18,234 nt of DNA. Origin: Clostridia bacterium (lineage in GTDB: Bacteria > Bacillota > Clostridia > UMGS1883). Below, piece after piece: positions 653-16,102 of this stretch (positions within the stretch are counted from its first letter, which is position 1; each line of letters opens with the position of its first letter). The notes beneath the pieces were generated by a model. That model was not told where the DNA came from. It did not search any database and worked only from the letters and a program-made list of their open reading frames with translations. Location: contig JBJDXJ010000012.1 of assembly GCA_051866635.1 (NCBI GenBank), positions 1 through 18,234 of the forward strand, given 5' to 3'. The position numbers were made by a program, and so were the translations under genes.

Positions 653-3600
653 TTATTCTAAAACTTCAGGCCATGCTCTCGCAAGGAGTGTACATGCTTC
701 TGCTCTTGTTGTAAACTTCTGAGGTCTGTAAGAGCCATCTTCATAACCTGTGATAAGGCCGTTAGTTACTGCGGCATCCATTTCGCCGTCGAACCACCAG
801 CTGATATCTTCAGCATCTGTAAATACATCCTTAGCACCGTCTTCAGCCGCTACCCAAACAGCACTCTTAGCTCTTGCTATAATTGCAACTGCCTGTTCAC
901 GAGTGATGTTGTCGTTAGGTCCGAATGTACCGTCACCGTAACCACGAGTCATACCGTAGCCTTCGGGAAGTGACATTGTAGCAATGATGCCTTCTGCCCA
1001 GTGACCTACTGTATCATCGTAAAGCACACCGTCTTCTGCTTCTTCAAGTCCAAGAATTCTGTATACAAGTGCGGAGAATTCAGCTCTTGTGATGTTCTGA
1101 TCGGGACGGAACAAGCCATCGGGATAACCGTTAATATAACCGTTAATTGTCATCTGGTCAATTGTTTCATGAGCCCAGTGAGCTTCTATATCAGGCCACT
1201 GACACTTATGAACTACAGTTTCTCCCTTATCGGAAGGAGTACTTATAGTACTGCCGGAGGATACCTTAACTGTAATTGTCTTTGAATCAACTGCTTCACC
1301 GTTTACATAAAGTGTAGCAACAACTTCTGTTGTACCCTTTGCAAGTCTTTCAATTGTAGCTGTGCTTGCACCGTTTTCTGCTACAGCAACTTCTGTAATA
1401 TTAAGGATTGTGCCGTCTGCCAATGTCCATTCTACTAATACAGTTGCATCTGCAGGTGTAACATTCTGAGGTGTTACTGTAATCTGTATTGTCTTTCCAA
1501 CCTTTACATATCTTGTGGAAGAACCTGCAAGGGCAAGTTTACCGCTTACTGTAGGTTCTGTAGGTTCAGAAGGTTCTGTGGGTTCTGTGGGTTCAGATTC
1601 TTCAATAATTGTGAAGTTAACTCTGTCTTCAGCTTTGTCTGTACCAACAACTACTTCGTATACATCACCTACAACTGCACCGTCAGGAATATTAATTTCA
1701 ATACCTGCTGCAAGTTCAGCCTTTGTATATACTACTGCGTAGATTGTTTCGCCACCCTTAACGATTGATACTGTTACGTGTTCAAGGTTTGTTGTACCCT
1801 TTACTGTAATTGTCTCATCGCTAAGCTTTACATCACCTATTTCTTCAAGGTCAACCGCATATACTACAGATTCGTCAACGATTGTGAAGTTAACTCTGTC
1901 TTCAGCTTTGTCTGTACCAACAACTACTTCGTATACATCGCCTACAACTGCACCGTCAGGGATATTAATTTCAATACCTGCTGCAAGTTCAGCCTTTGTA
2001 TATACTACTGCGTAAATTGTTTCGCTACCCTTAACGATTGATACTGTTACGTGTTCAAGGTTTGTTTCACCCTTTACTGTAATTGTCTCATCGCTAAGCT
2101 TTACGTCACCTATTTCTTCAAGGTCAACCACATATACTACAGATTCGTCAACGATTGTGAAGTTAACTCTGTCTTCAGCCTTGTCTGTACCAACAACTAC
2201 TTCGTATACATCACCTACAACTGCACCGTCAGGGATATTAATTTCAATACCTGCTGCAAGTTCAGCCTTTGTATATACTACTGCGTAAATTGTTTCGCTA
2301 CCCTTAACGATTGATACTGTTACGTGTTCAAGGTTTGTTTCACCCTTTACTGTAATTGTCTTATCGCTAAGCTTTACGTCGCCGATTTCTTCAAGGTCAA
2401 CCACATATACTACAGGTTCGCCTACAGCCTTAACTGTATATGTTGTTACATAACGATATTCATCTTCTACAAAATCGTCAACGCCGTCAACATCTTCATC
2501 GGAGTAACCACGGTAAAGATTGATTACAATTTCGTCTCCGATTTCAGCATTTGTCGCATCAAGATTGATAATACCAATCTCATTAGCTGCAACTGCGTCA
2601 ATTCCTGTACCTGAAACAACTTCAACATCGAACTGTGCGAAAGAAGGAAGTCCTGAAATAACTTCACTAATTGAAGGATATCTGTCATGAGCAAATGTCA
2701 ATTCAATAGTGTCTTTTTTACCTGCTTCAATTTCGATTACACTGTTCATAGCAGGACGGAGAAGCACTCTTCCCATGTAAACATCAGTATGAACAAGTTC
2801 AACACCGTGATTTGCGTCAAGCAAAGCCATTATGCTCTTTGCCTTTCCTATCATGGATGTACGGATTGTTTCAATTTCGTCCTTTTCAAAACCTATTGCT
2901 CCAAGTTTTTCAATAGGTTCAGCCATGAAGTCCAAATCTTCAACATACTCAGAAACAGTACTCATAACATCGTAAATTGCATTGATGGCAACTTCATTGG
3001 AACCGTCCAATATCTGTGTTCCCTTTGCTTGTGCAATTTTCGTGATAAGTTCTCTCTTGTCAAGTGTTACAAGAGCTGATCTTAATTCAGGAATGATATT
3101 AATATAATATCTGATAAGATCTTCACCCAGCAAAAGGAAGCTGGATTTCAATGTTTTGTCATCAATTTCATCAAATATTGCATCGCCACGTACTCTTTCA
3201 TTGCAAGCAATTTCAATGCCAATCTGCTGAACGTCAAGGATGCTTTCAGCAATAAGTTCGATTACATCGTTCTTTAAGTAATCTTTGAACTTAGCTTCAT
3301 CAACTGTGTATGCGGGCAAACCTGTTTCAGCCAGTGCAGCTTCGGCATAAACATTAAACTTGTCTGCATCTGCACCTGTTACTGCAGCACCGTCATTATA
3401 CATCATAGCAAGTTCAATGTAGTACTGACTCAACTGAGCTGAATATCCGCCTAATCCGTTAAGAGCTTCGTTAGGACGGGAAGCAGAAATTGCTTCGTCA
3501 TTATCCTTTTCAAATTCAGTAAAGTTCTCAAGCCACAGTTCATAAGTAGGATCGTCAACGCTTACATCCACATTGCCTTCCATGATATCTCTCATAATCT

Positions 3601-3931
3601 TCCACTTGTAGAGATCCTTCATGCTGTCAGTGGCTAAGAATTCATCTCCGCCTGCGTTAACAATTGTCTCAGCAGTTTGATAAACAATGTCTTTGATTTC
3701 GTCAGCCTTCGCATTGTAATTAGCATATGCATTTGCGATAACAGCTAACTGTTCTTCGGTCATAGCATTAAACTGAGCTTCCTGCCAGTCCCATGCTCTT
3801 TCTGTGTAGAGTCCGATTGAATCCTGCAAGGATGCCATAAGCTCAACATCTTCCTCTGCTACTGCAAAGCCGGGAAGAATTGTTACGCACATTGCGATTG
3901 CAAGAATAAGACTCAAAATACGTCTTTTCAT
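653..3931 (-). CDS. S-layer homology (SLH) domain cell-surface protein, 1092 aa, with three tandem 91-aa beta-rich repeats and an Ig-like domain
   Basis: Signal peptide MKRRILSLILAIAMCVTILPGFAVA. Three C-terminal SLH motifs (GYPDGLFRPDQNITRAEF, GYGDGTFGPNDNITREQA, GYEDGSYRPQKFTTRAEA). EPT linker. SD AAGGAAGGTG. Confidence 0.92.
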   Translation of the reverse strand: MKRRILSLILAIAMCVTILPGFAVAEEDVELMASLQDSIGLYTERAWDWQEAQFNAMTEEQLAVIANAYANYNAKADEIKDIVYQTAETIVNAGGDEFLATDSMKDLYKWKIMRDIMEGNVDVSVDDPTYELWLENFTEFEKDNDEAISASRPNEALNGLGGYSAQLSQYYIELAMMYNDGAAVTGADADKFNVYAEAALAETGLPAYTVDEAKFKDYLKNDVIELIAESILDVQQIGIEIACNERVRGDAIFDEIDDKTLKSSFLLLGEDLIRYYINIIPELRSALVTLDKRELITKIAQAKGTQILDGSNEVAINAIYDVMSTVSEYVEDLDFMAEPIEKLGAIGFEKDEIETIRTSMIGKAKSIMALLDANHGVELVHTDVYMGRVLLRPAMNSVIEIEAGKKDTIELTFAHDRYPSISEVISGLPSFAQFDVEVVSGTGIDAVAANEIGIINLDATNAEIGDEIVINLYRGYSDEDVDGVDDFVEDEYRYVTTYTVKAVGEPVVYVVDLEEIGDVKLSDKTITVKGETNLEHVTVSIVKGSETIYAVVYTKAELAAGIEINIPDGAVVGDVYEVVVGTDKAEDRVNFTIVDESVVYVVDLEEIGDVKLSDETITVKGETNLEHVTVSIVKGSETIYAVVYTKAELAAGIEINIPDGAVVGDVYEVVVGTDKAEDRVNFTIVDESVVYAVDLEEIGDVKLSDETITVKGTTNLEHVTVSIVKGGETIYAVVYTKAELAAGIEINIPDGAVVGDVYEVVVGTDKAEDRVNFTIIEESEPTEPTEPSEPTEPTVSGKLALAGSSTRYVKVGKTIQITVTPQNVTPADATVLVEWTLADGTILNITEVAVAENGASTATIERLAKGTTEVVATLYVNGEAVDSKTITVKVSSGSTISTPSDKGETVVHKCQWPDIEAHWAHETIDQMTINGYINGYPDGLFRPDQNITRAEFSALVYRILGLEEAEDGVLYDDTVGHWAEGIIATMSLPEGYGMTRGYGDGTFGPNDNITREQAVAIIARAKSAVWVAAEDGAKDVFTDAEDISWWFDGEMDAAVTNGLITGYEDGSYRPQKFTTRAEACTLLARAWPEVLE
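1608..2414. repeat. Intragenic tandem repeat, ~3 x 273 bp (91 aa)
   Basis: Unit start ATTGTGAAGTTAACTCTGTCTTCAGC recurs at 1608, 1881 and 2154. The protein repeat is VVYxVDLEEIGDVKLSD...DKAEDRVNFTI. Confidence 0.97.
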
Positions 3932-10367: not shown

Positions 10368-10419
10368 AAATACTCCTTATCTTTCAGGCATGGTACAGAT
10401 GATGATTTACCTCTTCCTT

Positions 10420-10539
10420 CTTCACTATTACCTATTACTTTCCAAAAATCGATAAGGCTTTTTTAGGAATAGTGAATAGTTAATAAGTAATAAGTAAAAT
10501 CGATAAGCCCCTTACGAGTCTTGTCGATTTTTGGGAAAG
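10420..10539. repeat. REP-like inverted repeat with internal heptamer microsatellite
   Basis: CTTTCCAAAAATCGATAAG (10438-10456) and AAAATCGATAAG (10496-10507) are both near-complementary to CTTGTCGATTTTTGGGAAAG (10520-10539). A run of AATAGTG/AATAGTT/AATAAGT/AATAAGT lies between them. Confidence 0.55.
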
Positions 10540-10565
10540 CAGAACCATAAGGATATTTTTGTTTA

Positions 10566-10740
10566 GTGAAATATCAAGCTAAGCTTGATGTGAAATAATT
10601 TACTTCGCAAATTGTGAAATTTGAAACTATTGTTTCAAGTGAAATGAAATAAATCCACACGCCGCAAGGCGTATTTCACATTGTGTAGCAATATTTCACG
10701 CCCGAAGGGTATTTCACAAATCCGATAGGATTTATTTCGT
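10566..10740. repeat. GTGAAAT / ATTTCAC heptamer-hairpin ladder
   Basis: GTGAAAT at 10566, 10590, 10614 and 10639. ATTTCAC at 10673, 10693 and 10711, plus ATTTCGT at 10734. Each spacer contains a different mini-hairpin. Confidence 0.8.
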
Positions 10741-10741
10741 T

Positions 10742-10782
10742 GAAAAAATGGCAGGTTTTCTATCAAAACCTACCATTTTTTC
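10742..10782 (-). terminator. Intrinsic terminator hairpin directly after the tRNA CCA
   Basis: Minus strand GAAAAAATGGTAGGTTTT-gatag-AAAACCTGCCATTTTTTC. Confidence 0.75.
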
Positions 10783-10858
10783 TGGCTCCTCCAGCTGGAC
10801 TTGAACCAGCGACATCATGATTAACAGTCATGCGCTCTACCGACTGAGCTATAGAGGA
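10783..10858 (-). tRNA. tRNA-Asn (anticodon GTT)
   Basis: Reverse complement TCCTCTATAGCTCAGTCGGTAGAGCGCATGACTGTTAATCATGATGTCGCTGGTTCAAGTCCAGCTGGAGGAGCCA forms a 76-nt cloverleaf with TTC T-loop and encoded CCA. Confidence 0.97.
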
Positions 10859-11196: not shown

Positions 11197-14100
11197 TTAC
11201 TTTTCTACTCCCATGATTTCTTCCATTACCTGATTGTAGAATCCTTCAAGATGATCAAGTTCAGCCACATCATCACCAAGGATATAAATTTCATGTACTG
11301 CATAGCCTGTTAAAGCAGTCCACTTAGGTGATGTATCGTAAGCACGCTTTCTTACCAATACAAGCTGACCGGGTGTAATATCTTCCAAAGAACCCTTAGT
11401 AATAGAGTCAAAGTAGCCGTCACGGTCATAATTTACCTTATAAACCGTACCTTCAAGTCTTTCGTTGGAAAGTACGCTTAAAGAATATGTGCTTTCAGCG
11501 GGATTTTCCTTAGAAATGCTTCCGCCTGTTGCATAAGCCATGCTGAAGAGCTTTCTGCCTACCACTTCATCAATAGAAGTTATCATACCGCAGTAGTAAC
11601 GTGTACAGTATGTGTAACTTGCCCAGTAGTTCCACTTTCTCCACTGTTCCTGATAGAAGGGCTGGAAAGGCATTAACTTAGTTTCTGTTGTCGCATTGTA
11701 TATGGGGTTAACCATATCCATCATGTTAGCATAAAGACTTGTGTCAAAGTAAGGAGCAATATCTTCAATATAAGAACCATCTGTAGAAATTCTTACGGGA
11801 TAACCATTGGGATATAACTCACCATCAAGATATGCAACCCATTCATACTGAGGTCTTACAAGAGAGTTTCTTACGCTTGTACCGTCGAAGTAGTAAACTC
11901 TTACAGTAGGATCGCCGCTGTTACGGTCAACAGCTTTTGTAATCTTCTGGATGAACTTGGGAGGTGTATTATCCTGATAATATGTAGCATCTCTGTTCTG
12001 GTCATCATCTTCAGAAGAGTCAACAGATTCATCATACCAGTTAGCCATTACAAGGAAATTACAGATAGTCTTCTGCATGTCAACCTTTGATTCATCAGGA
12101 CTGTAATAATAAGCCCAACAGTAATCATATATGTCGAAGTTGTAGTTGTCCCAGTATGTGTTCATATACTTTGTATAGAAAGACTGGTTATCGTTAGTAT
12201 GAACAGCAGCTTCTTCAATAAGGAAGTTAACTGTGCTGTCATCACAATATGTTCTCTTACCAACAGTGTTACCATATTCATCAACTGTTGTTTCTCCACT
12301 GTAGTGTAAGCACTTGTAACCTGCACTGTAGTAAAGATATCCTGAAGTTTTAATCTGTCTTGTCTGAAGATAACCGTCGTTTTCACCCACAACAATTACT
12401 TCGCAAATTTCGTCCTTGCTGTTTACCTTGTAAAGGAAACCTGCTCTGGAAGGATGAGGACGAGCCATGTTATTTGACTTATAAACAGGGTCTTCTGTTG
12501 CACCGAAGAGAGCATCTGTATATGCAAGTTCATAGAACTCTTCGCTTGTCATCTTGTCATCGTTAACCTTAATGGAGGATGCAAGATTATAAATTTTTAC
12601 GCCGCTATTCTGTGTAAGAACCTTTACCTGATAACCACGGGCAAGACCACCGTCATTGATAGCGATAAACATACCTATGTTCTTTCTGATAACAGTTGTA
12701 CCTTCAAAACCTACGATACGCATATCGGCATCAAGATAAAATTCACCTGTATCGGAAACTGCAAGTTCAACCTTGCCCTTTGCGGCAGGGGAAATTTCGT
12801 ATTCAACACCGTTGATTGTGTAATAACCATCATAGCTTATTTCTGTAACTTCGCCCTTAACTCTGTTGTTTGAAACTACAACTTTCTTTTCAAGACCGTC
12901 CAAGGACTGGTATACATAAAGAACGCTGTACTGCTTAATATCACTAAGCTGAGCCGCACCGCCCTGAGAGTTAAGTAGTGTTACATGATAATCGTCATGT
13001 GTGGGGTCAAGCTTGTATGTTGTTGTACGGTCATAGTAACCGGAAACGCTACCTGTTGACTGAGAAGCAGAGAAAACATATACAAGTTCATATTCCCAAA
13101 CATCGATAATATCGTACTTATCATCGCCATTATTATCAATGAATATTACGTAACCGTTTTCAGGCTTAAGAAGCTCTGTCTGAACATCGATTACAGCCTT
13201 GCCGTTATAAAGAACAAGAGGTGTAGCACTTGTTTTGACATACTTTGTCTTCTTATCTGTCTTCTTGTCGTTCCAGTAATTATATGTGTAACCTTCAACT
13301 GTAGCTTCAATACTTTCAATATTGTCAGCCTGAATAGTTACAAGGTTATTCTTTACGTTCTTGACACCGTAAGCAATAATTGTTCTGCTACCTGTCAAAT
13401 CGTCATCAAGAGCATATACAGTGGCATAGTATCCAAGGTAGGATCCAATGTCTGTACTGCCTACATAGAAGGCTTCACCGTTGATAAGAACCTGTTTTTT
13501 ATCAACAGTTGTTTCACCGTCAATAGCAACATATTCGTTTTCAGCAATGATACCGTTTACTTCATAAACGTCAAAGTATGTATTAAGTGCATTCTTACCT
13601 TCTACTGCACGATATTCCACAACCGTACCGTCAACAGAGTAGGATACAGCTTCCATAATGTCAACAGTCAATGCCGCATATACAAGTTTTGCAACATCAC
13701 CGCGAGTAATGTTCTGACCCATGGAGGTTGAAAGCTTCTTTGTAAGACCAAGTCTCTGTGCTACATAAACATAGTCACTGAGCTTGTCACCTCGGCTGAT
13801 AGCCTGGTGAGAATAACCAAGAGCAGAAACTACCATCTGCATAGCATCTTCGTAAGAAGCACTCATGTCAGGGTTAAAGTTACCGTCTTCGTCACTTCTT
13901 GCAATACCTGCGGCCTTTGCCAAAGCAATAACGCCGCCTGCCCAACCTTCATAATCGTACATATCGTTAAAAAGGTCCATATCGTCGGGAGCTGTTTCAG
14001 GATATTCGTCAATACCTGCAAGCTTTACCGCAACAGCTACCATTTCAGCACGTGTAATTGTGTTATAAGGAAGGAAAGAACCGTCCGTATAACCTCCCAT

Positions 14101-14250
14101 AATGCCCAAAGCGCTAAGCACATCAACTGCAAGTTCGCAATCGGTGTCCACAGTGTCATAATATGTACCTGCCACTGCACTGTTGGGAACAACTATAAGA
14201 GAGAAAACCATTGTGAGCATTATAAACATGCTCATAATTCTTTTTTTCAT
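11197..14250 (-). CDS. S-layer-type protein, 1017 aa, with N-terminal SLH domains
   Basis: Signal peptide, then GIMGGYTDGSFLPYNTITRAEM, FNPDMSASYEDA and QNITRGDVAKLVY. The body is beta-rich with a DNNGDDKYD Ca-loop-like motif, and the C-terminal part is Tyr/Trp-rich. Confidence 0.9.
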   Translation of the reverse strand: MKKRIMSMFIMLTMVFSLIVVPNSAVAGTYYDTVDTDCELAVDVLSALGIMGGYTDGSFLPYNTITRAEMVAVAVKLAGIDEYPETAPDDMDLFNDMYDYEGWAGGVIALAKAAGIARSDEDGNFNPDMSASYEDAMQMVVSALGYSHQAISRGDKLSDYVYVAQRLGLTKKLSTSMGQNITRGDVAKLVYAALTVDIMEAVSYSVDGTVVEYRAVEGKNALNTYFDVYEVNGIIAENEYVAIDGETTVDKKQVLINGEAFYVGSTDIGSYLGYYATVYALDDDLTGSRTIIAYGVKNVKNNLVTIQADNIESIEATVEGYTYNYWNDKKTDKKTKYVKTSATPLVLYNGKAVIDVQTELLKPENGYVIFIDNNGDDKYDIIDVWEYELVYVFSASQSTGSVSGYYDRTTTYKLDPTHDDYHVTLLNSQGGAAQLSDIKQYSVLYVYQSLDGLEKKVVVSNNRVKGEVTEISYDGYYTINGVEYEISPAAKGKVELAVSDTGEFYLDADMRIVGFEGTTVIRKNIGMFIAINDGGLARGYQVKVLTQNSGVKIYNLASSIKVNDDKMTSEEFYELAYTDALFGATEDPVYKSNNMARPHPSRAGFLYKVNSKDEICEVIVVGENDGYLQTRQIKTSGYLYYSAGYKCLHYSGETTVDEYGNTVGKRTYCDDSTVNFLIEEAAVHTNDNQSFYTKYMNTYWDNYNFDIYDYCWAYYYSPDESKVDMQKTICNFLVMANWYDESVDSSEDDDQNRDATYYQDNTPPKFIQKITKAVDRNSGDPTVRVYYFDGTSVRNSLVRPQYEWVAYLDGELYPNGYPVRISTDGSYIEDIAPYFDTSLYANMMDMVNPIYNATTETKLMPFQPFYQEQWRKWNYWASYTYCTRYYCGMITSIDEVVGRKLFSMAYATGGSISKENPAESTYSLSVLSNERLEGTVYKVNYDRDGYFDSITKGSLEDITPGQLVLVRKRAYDTSPKWTALTGYAVHEIYILGDDVAELDHLEGFYNQVMEEIMGVEK

Positions 14251-14278: not shown

Positions 14279-16102
14279 TTAGTTCATGTAAATATATACC
14301 TGGTTTAATAAAGCACATGCATAAGCTCGTGTAGCTTTTCTTGTAGGTTCAAATACGTCAATGCTCTTAGGATCGGAAGCATCGAGGTAAACACCTGCAT
14401 TGTAAAGAGCAGCTACAGCATCAACAGCATAAGGTGCAATATCGCCCTTGTCCTTCAAGCCGTCCACACTTGATGTGAACTTATCAAGTGACAGGCCCTT
14501 TATCTTAGCGGCTCTGTAAATAAGTGTTACTGCATCCTGTCTTGTAACAGGGTCATTAACGCCGAACAAGCCGTTGCCATAACCTTCTGCAAGACCAATC
14601 TTTTCGGCACTTGCAATATATACATGATACCATGCATCTTTATCAACATCAGTAAACGAGCTTGTAGCAGTAATATCAGCTAAGCCAAACACGTTAACCA
14701 ACATCTTCATAAATTCAGCTCTTGTAAGAGAGTTACCCGGGCCAAATGTCTTGTCACCGTAACCGGAAACAATTTCTTTCTTTGTAAGGTTCAAGATAGC
14801 ATCTGAAGCCCACAAATAATCGCCCATATCTGTGTAGTAACCGGCAATTTCCACATAGGGGTCATAGTTGTTTGCCGTATTTGAAATCTGTGTTGACACA
14901 GTATGTGTTACACTGCCTGAGGATGAAGAACCGCCGGATGATGAAGAACCACCTGAGGATGAAGAACTTTCAATCTTCTTTTCAGCAGCTTTGTAAGCAT
15001 CATCCCAAGCATCTTTGATTTCGTCTACACTGTAGTATGTACCCTTAAATTCTTCACAGAAAGCATTTCTCAGCTTTTTGTTGTTAAGGAGTTTCTTTAT
15101 TTCGGATTCATCAACTCCGAACAATTCGTTATTTTCAGCGATTACGTTAACAAGATTAAGCCAGTGAGTTTCGTTTACAATCTGAACACATACTGCCTGC
15201 TTGAGAATGTCTTCAAGTTCGTCTGCGTTAGCCACTTCTTCCTTCATTGTCTTTGAAATCTTTGCAACAATATCCTTGTTTTTAATCTTTCCGAAAACAG
15301 AATCGTCAGATGCGTCTATACCAACTGCATCAGCATGAGTATAAATAACATTTGCTAATTCTTCATCTGAAAATCCGCCTTTGTTATATGCGGCTACAAT
15401 ATATGCTTCCTTTACAAAGCCTGCCGCACTTACGTAATCAAGGCTCGCCTTATCTAAATTATATTTTCCGTTTACACCGTTCACAATGAGCTCAACAAAA
15501 GCTTCCTGACCGTTTTCGGAAAGTATTTCGTAATCATTTGATGTAAGAGCCACAGAATCTTCATAGTCTAAAACAGAAAGTGCATAATAGAGATTCTTAA
15601 TGTTTTCTCTTACTTCTGTTGTATCTTCTTTGGACTTAATCGCATCCATGAAGCTATCTACATCTTCTTTCGTTACAAAGAAAATCTTTTCCTGGTAAAC
15701 TTCACCGGCATTATAAAGTGCAATTGTAACATAGTAGAAGTCACCGCTCTTGTTTGTACCGGGATACAGCTCAAGCTCTGCAACGCCTGCATTTACAGGT
15801 GAGTATGCAACACCGATAAGGCTTGGTTCATAGTAACCGAACATATTATCATAGCCGCCGTTTTCATAACCGCCTTCGCTCTCGTCACCATAACACATAT
15901 AAGCAAATACCGGCTGGTCATTTGAAACATTTTCTGCTGTAATGTCAATATAAAGCTTAGGACCAATCTGTTCAATTTCCACACTTGTCAATTCAGGTCT
16001 AACATAGGGTTCAGCTTCAGGAGATATATCTGCTGCAAATGCTGTGCACTGCATAAGCATAAGTACACCAACCAAGGCTGCTAAAATTTTCTTAGCGTTC
16101 AT
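14279..16102 (-). CDS. SLH domain protein, 607 aa, with C-terminal SLH domains after a Ser/Gly linker
   Basis: Signal peptide, SSSSSGGSSSSGGSSSSG linker, then GYGDKTFGPGNSLTRAEF, GYGNGLFGVNDPVTRQDA and FEPTRKATRAY. SD GGAGG. Confidence 0.9.
   Translation of the reverse strand: MNAKKILAALVGVLMLMQCTAFAADISPEAEPYVRPELTSVEIEQIGPKLYIDITAENVSNDQPVFAYMCYGDESEGGYENGGYDNMFGYYEPSLIGVAYSPVNAGVAELELYPGTNKSGDFYYVTIALYNAGEVYQEKIFFVTKEDVDSFMDAIKSKEDTTEVRENIKNLYYALSVLDYEDSVALTSNDYEILSENGQEAFVELIVNGVNGKYNLDKASLDYVSAAGFVKEAYIVAAYNKGGFSDEELANVIYTHADAVGIDASDDSVFGKIKNKDIVAKISKTMKEEVANADELEDILKQAVCVQIVNETHWLNLVNVIAENNELFGVDESEIKKLLNNKKLRNAFCEEFKGTYYSVDEIKDAWDDAYKAAEKKIESSSSSGGSSSSGGSSSSGSVTHTVSTQISNTANNYDPYVEIAGYYTDMGDYLWASDAILNLTKKEIVSGYGDKTFGPGNSLTRAEFMKMLVNVFGLADITATSSFTDVDKDAWYHVYIASAEKIGLAEGYGNGLFGVNDPVTRQDAVTLIYRAAKIKGLSLDKFTSSVDGLKDKGDIAPYAVDAVAALYNAGVYLDASDPKSIDVFEPTRKATRAYACALLNQVYIYMN

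Follow-up and report, generated by a model that had tools for sequence, protein, structure and literature searches.

What kind of element is formed by the short constant heptamers and variable hairpins that lie behind a tRNA-Asn gene in the window, the whole 18,234-nt stretch of DNA that was analysed? The initial annotation, which was made from the sequence alone, described a ladder of GTGAAAT heptamers whose polarity flips, and proposed that it might be an undescribed structured non-coding RNA, a single-stranded substrate of an HUH/Y1 transposase, or a multivalent protein-binding scaffold. The ladder itself was readily recovered: GTGAAAT occurs on the plus strand at 10566, 10590, 10614, and 10639 (spacing 24, 24, and 25) and on the minus strand at 10673, 10693, and 10711, which gives four plus-strand and three minus-strand copies of flipping polarity between 10566 and 10717, with a small hairpin beside each heptamer. 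All seven of the hairpins that had been named could be located, as could a divergent ATTTCGT heptamer at the ladder's end. The window as a whole holds 12 GTGAAAT matches compared to 4.53 +/- 2.19 in 200 shuffles, only one of which reached 12, and seven of the 12 are packed inside 152 nt. The ladder and its tRNA-side flank comprise the following features, with the two arms named by their distance from the tRNA gene.

10573-10589, ladder hairpin of the distal arm, AT-rich
10597-10613, ladder hairpin of the distal arm, AT-rich
10621-10638, ladder hairpin of the distal arm, AT-rich
10659-10672, plus strand, ladder hairpin ACGCC-GCAA-GGCGT, fourth hairpin of the proximal arm, beyond the Rfam model
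10680-10692, ladder hairpin of the proximal arm, with one T.G pair
10700-10710, ladder hairpin of the proximal arm, with one G.T pair
10718-10733, ladder hairpin of the proximal arm
10734-10740, ATTTCGT heptamer
10742-10782, both strands, bidirectional terminator-like hairpin, A6 + 18-nt arms + T6 (inverted repeat, 94% complementary)
10783-10858, minus strand, tRNA-Asn (GTT) with encoded CCA (tRNA model, 72 bits)
10912 to 10884, promoter-like site of tRNA-Asn, TTGACA-17-TATAAT (12 of 12 promoter positions)

The 184-nt stretch that carries the ladder has a predicted fold of -55.6 kcal/mol on the plus strand and -55.5 kcal/mol on the minus strand, far better than shuffled versions of the same stretch (-32.9 and -30.9 kcal/mol, respectively; z = -5.60 and -5.95; none of 200 shuffles as good). 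In the minimum-energy folds of both strands the left heptamers are paired with the right heptamers and the side hairpins are left over, in agreement with the spine with side hairpins that the initial annotation had envisaged. The alternative pairing that it pointed out also exists, as the centre segment GAAATAAATCC (10646-10656, plus strand) is complementary to GGATTTATTTC (10728-10738), and the two were also detected as an inverted repeat of 14 nt at 93%. The fourth hairpin of the proximal arm (10659-10672) is followed on the minus strand by a U-rich stretch, and the sole terminator-like site given for the ladder region in the terminator listing lies here, on the minus strand from 10674 to 10657.

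The ladder is a copy of the Gut-1 element

A scan of the window against all Rfam families matched the ladder to Gut-1 (RF01706, gathering score 50 bits), a motif that was reportedly first drawn in a 2009 Nature paper. Both strands were matched over the same model positions:

10668-10742, minus strand, proximal arm, strong Gut-1 match (68.4 bits, E = 6.8e-14, model 1-77)
10564-10650, plus strand, distal arm, weak Gut-1 match (46.6 bits, below the 50-bit cut-off, E = 2.2e-8, model 1-77)

By gathering score, the minus-strand arm is a member of the family and the plus-strand arm falls below the cut-off. By the layout of hairpins and GUGAAAU heptamers, together with the compensatory changes among the copies in this genome and its relatives, the ladder likewise belongs to Gut-1: the RF01706 consensus reads UGAAAU-hairpin-GUGAAAU-hairpin-GUGAAAU-hairpin-UGUGAAAU, and the proximal arm, read on the minus strand, consists of three hairpins with GUGAAAU between them. 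The shared features are three short hairpins, (G/U)UGAAAU between and flanking them, and a middle loop of the CUUCG type, and the covariance model aligns end to end on both strands of the window ladder. The difference lies in extent: a single 77-nt arm in the Rfam model, a larger unit in the genome. What lies in the window is a complete copy of this element. Because it scores above the Gut-1 gathering score, the proposal of an undescribed structured RNA fails, and a match to an already described Rfam family is what the initial annotation had itself named as removing the novelty. The ladder does exist, and it adds one copy to an orphan family that is already known; as a finding about the window it is ordinary.

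Weinberg et al. 2010 (PMC2864571) rate Gut-1 as certainly RNA, not cis-regulatory and not a riboswitch, give it as "human gut only" with no function, and include GUGAUAU variants in the published alignment. Since 2010 the motif has stood as an orphan, for which neither an organism nor a genomic context nor a function is given. In the main text and alignment of PMC2864571 we found no second inverted arm, no fourth hairpin or complement between centre and end, and no link to a terminator or a tRNA 3′ end. Our search of the literature on Gut-1 returned the describing paper and a machine-learning paper in which the family serves as an example, with no functional study among the results, and a search on heptamers with hairpins and repeats returned nothing related. 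As far as the main text and alignment of the describing paper go, the dyad and the terminator and tRNA context reported below are apparently not yet in print. Three features, namely the two-armed dyad, its position at bidirectional terminators and tRNA 3′ ends, and its behaviour as a dispersed repeat with co-varying heptamers, provide first testable handles on the role of Gut-1, and the catalogued strand or extent of the family is possibly incomplete.

The genomic unit is a dyad of two convergent arms

In the genome, the unit is a dyad of about 175 nt formed by two convergent Gut-1 arms. Read in the direction of the tRNA, it starts with the bidirectional terminator hairpin straight after the tRNA CCA, continues with the GC-richer proximal Gut-1 arm (10742 down to 10668) and its fourth hairpin, then passes through an 11-nt centre segment that is the complement of the proximal arm's start, and ends with the distal Gut-1 arm, which is richer in AT and inverted (from 10650 to 10564). 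The genome to which the window belongs (G000; 2.33 Mb in 63 contigs, 39% GC) contains 15 matches to the Gut-1 model, eight of them above the cut-off, and 12 of the 15 form six convergent pairs, which are found at six of its nine Gut-1 loci. Each pair combines a shorter, GC-richer arm with a spacing of 16-21 nt and a longer, AT-richer arm with a spacing of about 24 nt.

A second set of elements in the same genome carries (G/T)CGATAT instead of GTGAAAT in the same architecture at four loci (on contigs C26, C38, C41, and C52); of these, the C38 locus is also weakly matched by a lone Gut-1 hit (32.2 bits). Adding the eight loci coded by GTGAAAT brings the total for the 2.33-Mb genome to 12 ladder loci, and the copy-number check suggested in the initial annotation thus returned a multi-copy element. 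Further heptamers occur in related genomes, including ATGAAAT, GATGAAAT, AGTGAAGTT, and GTGATAT/GTGGTAT, and one relative (G007) has an additional CTTCAT-coded array. Across all collected loci, 41 of 45 adjacent arm pairs have one word in common, in inverted orientation. This comparison shows a heptamer that changes in concert on both arms.

The centre segment behaves in a similar manner. It follows the last distal heptamer and complements the last heptamer together with the outermost hairpin's 3′ half, and a perfect centre complement of at least 10 nt is present in 39 of 62 non-redundant dyads compared to 160 of 2000 random pairings. This complement comes in at least eight versions, and in 36 aligned arms eight of 11 centre-complement pairs have changed on both sides, so that the alternative pairing covaries among the dyads; since these 36 arms were preselected for a centre complement, a "percent paired" value from them is circular. 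The competing local hairpin of the Rfam model is kept too, at 94.9%. The subfamilies differ by compensatory stem changes, and the earlier observation that the hairpins conserve structure and not sequence holds between copies as well. Stems that are kept by double changes are strong evidence for a single-stranded form, and the ladder may be taken to fold as a single strand, as the initial annotation had argued.

Ladders lie at terminators and tRNA 3′ ends

The window ladder sits behind the terminator of tRNA-Asn as initially described, with the hairpin at 10742-10782 between the two, and the proximal arm starts right at the T run of this terminator. The junction CCA-G-A6-hairpin-T6-CAACGAAAT is also found after six other tRNA genes of G000. 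Seven of the 12 ladders in this genome begin 34-41 nt past an intact tRNA (Cys, Leu-TAG, Asn, Glu, Leu-CAG, Arg-CCG, and Arg-CCT), always with CCA-G-A6-hairpin-T6-C-AAC-GAAAT. Another two (C46 and C49b) lie behind a tRNA-end sequence of 11 or 18 nt that exactly repeats the 3′ end of a tRNA located 155 or 196 nt upstream; a small insertion has therefore separated these ladders from their tRNA. The other three start no more than about 20 nt past the end of a co-directional ORF, as called mechanically and in the coordinates of the ORF list. With seven ladders behind tRNAs, two behind tRNA-end duplicates, and three behind ORF ends, the proximal arm, in the Rfam sense, is therefore co-oriented with its upstream unit in all 12 cases.

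The association extends to other genomes. A script count over many genomes placed a convergent tRNA within 170 nt of 22 of 39 proximal arms, and by eye the flank continues as TTG/CTG-A run-hairpin-T run in 32 of the 39, while another six have a T-run-CTGG junction without a complete tRNA (also counted by eye). For 53 arms of relatives, we recorded the nearest feature within 200 nt upstream in the Rfam sense, which was a co-directional tRNA for 12, a co-directional ORF end for 13, and an opposite ORF start for nine, with nothing in this range for the remaining 19; the ORFs in this tally are mechanical calls, some of them spurious. These positions show the element to be tied, as judged from sequence context, to bidirectional terminators and tRNA 3′ ends. 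A second terminator-like hairpin (10496-10532), which is part of a different dispersed repeat, lies on the far side of the window ladder. As the ladder is thus located between two terminator-like hairpins, transcription into it would need read-through.

Copy number and distribution

Of 41 genomes of the order, 24 have Gut-1 matches, in 16 of them above the cut-off and with up to 41 per genome. In a broader sample, 21 of 151 genomes of the class have matches, patchily distributed over at least 10 families. We also made the comparison of orthologous tRNA-Asn loci that had been proposed with the initial annotation: in four genomes of the same genus (G009, G007, G006, and G004) the ladder is missing behind tRNA-Asn, which is followed by a plain terminator only, and one of these genomes (G009) has rluA and tRNA-Asn arranged as in the window. 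A 27-nt piece of the rluA start, used to look for alleles from the same species, had no match in the metagenome contigs covered. Elements coded by three different heptamers are nested in G007, and this looks like one ladder inserted into another.

A pattern scan with three heptamers over genome and viral contigs was unspecific, and a hairpin filter was applied afterwards. Among the 122 genome matches listed, at least 64 pass this filter and 58 fail; among the 80 viral matches listed, four pass, one of which (L236) is a plain AT-rich tandem repeat. In the first 80 of at least 122 loci, the MAGs with hairpin-spaced arrays are labelled as Clostridia, Eubacteriales, Ruminococcus, Ruminococcaceae, Oscillospiraceae, Acutalibacteraceae, and Christensenellaceae, and their sources include human, ruminant, and horse gut. 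Gut-1 was also found above the Rfam cut-off in four IMG/VR contigs and in MAGs labelled as Akkermansia sp., Akkermansiaceae, and Bacteroidaceae, for which binning errors are possible. These surveys show Gut-1 as a multi-copy family with a patchy distribution among gut Clostridia.

Comparison with REP and BIME repeats

The REP and BIME sequences of enterobacteria are short, structured, multi-copy repeats at gene 3′ ends or in intergenic regions, often in inverted pairs, which are transcribed within neighbouring units and vary between relatives. The REP unit consists of a GTAG tetranucleotide and one conserved imperfect palindrome, and is tied to RAYT transposases. The ladder is likewise multi-copy, intergenic, placed at unit 3′ ends, and often composed of inverted pairs; however, its constant part is GTGAAAT in place of GTAG, its hairpins vary within one element, and it has no RAYT association. 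Matches to Y1_Tnp (PF01797) are present in 30 of the 41 genomes of the order, but three Gut-1-positive relatives (G006, G014, and G034; 82-97% complete) have no such match, and no ladder was seen beside a Y1 gene. A RAYT-like ORF of G000 (C38:210366-211100, 244 aa, with a weak Y1_Tnp match of 28.8 bits) is preceded not by ladders but by at least four classical REP-like repeats, each a GC-rich hairpin followed by CTAC (C38, about 210150-210650, part of which reads N). The proposed link of the ladder to an HUH/Y1 transposase is not supported in the genomes compared.

The best explanation of the window ladder, which we hold with moderate confidence and in which the mechanism is inferred, is that this Gut-1 copy is a REP/BIME-like structured intergenic repeat that resides at the 3′ ends of transcription units, mostly those of tRNA genes. 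The element would act as a single strand, either RNA or single-stranded DNA. Whichever strand is exposed or transcribed would fold into the seven small hairpins, and the two arms would zip up through their constant heptamers to form a spine, yielding a rod of about -55 kcal/mol that may cap or insulate read-through transcripts arriving from either side. The family would spread among terminator-proximal sites via some recombination or transposition route; the loci and genomes compared yielded neither a mobilising enzyme nor a target-site duplication or a clean empty site.

Bidirectional intrinsic terminators resemble the ladder in their dyad symmetry and their placement between transcription units, and the ladder abuts one (10742-10782), but its own hairpins are followed by AUUUCAC or GUGAAAU and no U tract. 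We also considered each hairpin with its AUUUCAC as a mini-terminator, an idea that was rejected because there are only three U and other lineages have the codes AUAUCGC or ACUUCAC. A repeated CCA noticed at the end of the distal tail failed in other loci.

Strand polarity and a possible small RNA gene

Another reading, possible but in our judgement rather improbable, is that the ladder is a discrete small RNA gene, non-coding as Gut-1 was originally classed. Two versions can be distinguished: two convergent Gut-1 RNAs or, as the likelier of the two, a single plus-strand transcript some 215 nt long, which starts at 10566 and stops at the shared terminator (about 10782). Several copies of a protein would be bound by its single-stranded heptamers, in the manner of a sponge or a scaffold, or else its two arms would close into a rod. 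This reading draws on the rating of Gut-1 as certainly RNA and not cis-regulatory in Weinberg et al. 2010 (PMC2864571), and on several features of the arms themselves. The run of A, hairpin, and run of T that follows the proximal arm (the same 32 of 39 counted by eye) resembles the end of a small RNA, and the two arms differ consistently across lineages, AT-rich for the distal and GC-rich for the proximal arm, which suggests a direction.

The loops and stems provide a further signal of polarity. Read in the Rfam sense, the loops have the form T..C (TTC 51, TGC 36, TTGC 16, and TTAC 13), and accordingly they read GAA, GCA, GCAA, and GTAA, that is G..A, on the ATTTCAC strand; this holds in all 63 arms that could be oriented, none of which is mixed, with 14 more arms that were unorientable. 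The predicted hairpin stability is better on the ATTTCAC strand in 127 cases against 50 with RNA parameters, with 251 equal, and in 124 against 43 with DNA parameters, although the difference is slight and the spacers are related, so that the cases are not independent. Both features count in favour of a small RNA, and the asymmetry of loops and predicted stability points to the strand opposite to the Rfam orientation. The co-orientation with upstream units, in contrast, favours the Rfam strand as the one that would be transcribed, and the polarity signals therefore conflict. On the ATTTCAC strand the proximal arm would end at the terminator in the manner of a small RNA, which suits a separate RNA gene as well as it suits the 3′-end repeat.

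Other observations stand against a small RNA gene. Among 56 dyads, no positional -10 signal was found upstream of the outer arm in either strand reading, and the promoter listing of the window has no promoter-like site upstream of 10566. For a trans-acting RNA gene it would be odd to occur in so many copies, to be nested, and to be present in some sister species but not in others, and with several heptamer variants in a genome, a protein partner would need equally many specificities. The stems also contain very few G.U pairs: in 289 of 428 distinct spacers, those with a clear stem, the 1710 stem pairs comprise 1675 Watson-Crick, 11 G.T, 20 A.C, and four other pairs, and such a scarcity of wobble pairs is atypical of an RNA that is under selection on a single strand. 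Promoter candidates picked by hand upstream of 10566 were weak and inconsistent, and were discarded.

Sponge RNAs of the CsrB/RsmZ type carry their motif in loops and are single genes with a promoter. The ladder shares with them the many copies of a short motif on a hairpin scaffold, but its motif is located between the hairpins, it is multi-copy, and no promoter was found in the 56 dyads.

Mobile DNA and duplex binding sites

Purely selfish mobile DNA of the MITE or REP kind, acting at the DNA level and without an RNA function, is in our view an unlikely account of the ladder. The hairpins would then be formed in single-stranded DNA as the substrate of a transposase or recombinase, and the elements would be placed beside terminator hairpins. 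The multi-copy, patchy, and nested occurrence is consistent with this account, as is the presence in MAGs labelled as other phyla, and the stems are near-perfect palindromes (1675 Watson-Crick pairs among 1710). On one strand, the most frequent loops are GAA and GCA triloops with a closing C-G pair, which are the loops of unusually stable DNA mini-hairpins. Of the terminal inverted repeats and target-site duplication that mark a MITE, an 11-nt inverted repeat encloses the proximal arm, and the small insertions with tRNA-end duplications at two loci indicate that the region is recombinationally active. On the other hand, no enzyme could be linked to the element, given the absence of Y1_Tnp in the three relatives named above and the RAYT-like ORF of G000 with its own, different repeats; no target-site duplication was seen in the inspected flanks, and a precise empty site was not obtained. 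Moreover, the co-orientation of all 12 ladders of G000 with their upstream unit also fits a transcript-level role, and the conservation of the two-arm architecture across the families of the order suggests that the whole dyad is under selection.

We also considered a bolder account, which we regard as doubtful, in which Gut-1 ladders would not be small-RNA genes but a new kind of structured element, non-autonomous and homing to sites on the 3′ side of tRNA genes. Its heptamer "code" would evolve in concert in the two arms because they have to zip together, and the folded ladder of four-way junctions, as RNA or single-stranded DNA, would be the active form for spread, for insulation of tRNA units, or for both.

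Lastly, an array of protein sites in double-stranded DNA (iterons, integrase arm-type sites, or a roadblock) is very improbable: constant 7-mers do occur in direct and inverted arrays next to tRNA genes, and other tRNA-downstream modules of G000 have tandem heptamers without hairpins, but the spacing ranges from 16 to 25 bp, a duplex array has no need of hairpin spacers with compensatory changes and strand-specific loops, and no integrase or replication gene was found adjacent in the window.

Other repeats and genes in the window and its genome

The repeat that bounds the ladder on the side away from the tRNA belongs to a dispersed type, here called type B, which in the window contains tandem AGTGAAT/AGTTAAT/AAGTAAT heptamers. 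Its stem is conserved as AAAATCGACAAG...CTTGTCGATTTT and is followed by tandem heptamers without hairpins, partly arranged as a dyad. Type B recurs at seven other places in G000:

10405-10534 of the window, type B repeat with a terminator-like hairpin (arms 10496-10507 and 10520-10531) and A/T runs
C6:60062-60185, type B copy
C1:66667-66737, type B copy
C63:28659-28718, type B copy
C26:92412-92532, type B copy
C15:65249-65313, type B copy
C16:62294-62358, type B copy
C16:62500-62564, type B copy

The copies on C6, C1, and C63 and one of those on C16 abut tRNA 3′ ends, and type B is found directly after tRNA-Leu, Gln, Glu, and Lys. A third module downstream of tRNAs, type C, consists of a terminator with the stem AAACAAAAATCC...GGATTTTTGTTTT and, after it, TTATTCA heptamers in tandem together with their inverse, and was seen in tRNA 3′ flanks at five sites:

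C5:16743, plus strand, type C
C14:14291, minus strand, type C
C54:5578, minus strand, type C
C58:230, plus strand, type C
C18:53790, plus strand, type C

By our own count, a heptamer-repeat module (Gut-1, type B, or type C) is present at some 16-17 of the 29 tRNA unit ends of G000.

The two insertions at tRNA 3′ ends of this genome lie at C46:36664-36862 (155 nt) and C49:21680-21926 (196 nt), flanked by exact duplicates of the last 11 nt of tRNA-Met and the last 18 nt of tRNA-Trp, respectively. They share a similar hairpin, AAAACAGTCC..GGACTGTTTT, and no Rfam family other than tRNA and Gut-1 reached its gathering score at these two loci. Similar remnants of tRNA ends were seen beside Gut-1 at four other loci (L016, L017, L031, and L032).

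Among the nested arrays of G007, two loci (L313, G007:C40:1-720, and L298, G007:C2) contain a GCGATA-coded dyad within a CTTCAT-coded array, with a TGAAAT-coded arm adjoining; a heptamer-plus-hairpin unit is present in duplicate on either side. Relative to rluA, four genomes of the same genus (G007:C57, G006:C8, G008:C366, and G001:C49) have the tRNA-Asn segment inverted, with the two promoters facing each other, while in G000 and G009 tRNA-Asn is upstream of rluA with both on one strand. The window also contains three large ORFs with S-layer homology (SLH) domains, all on the minus strand (653-3931, 11197-14250, and 14279-16102), and near these are a CBM_4_9-like ORF and a GDSL lipase-like ORF.
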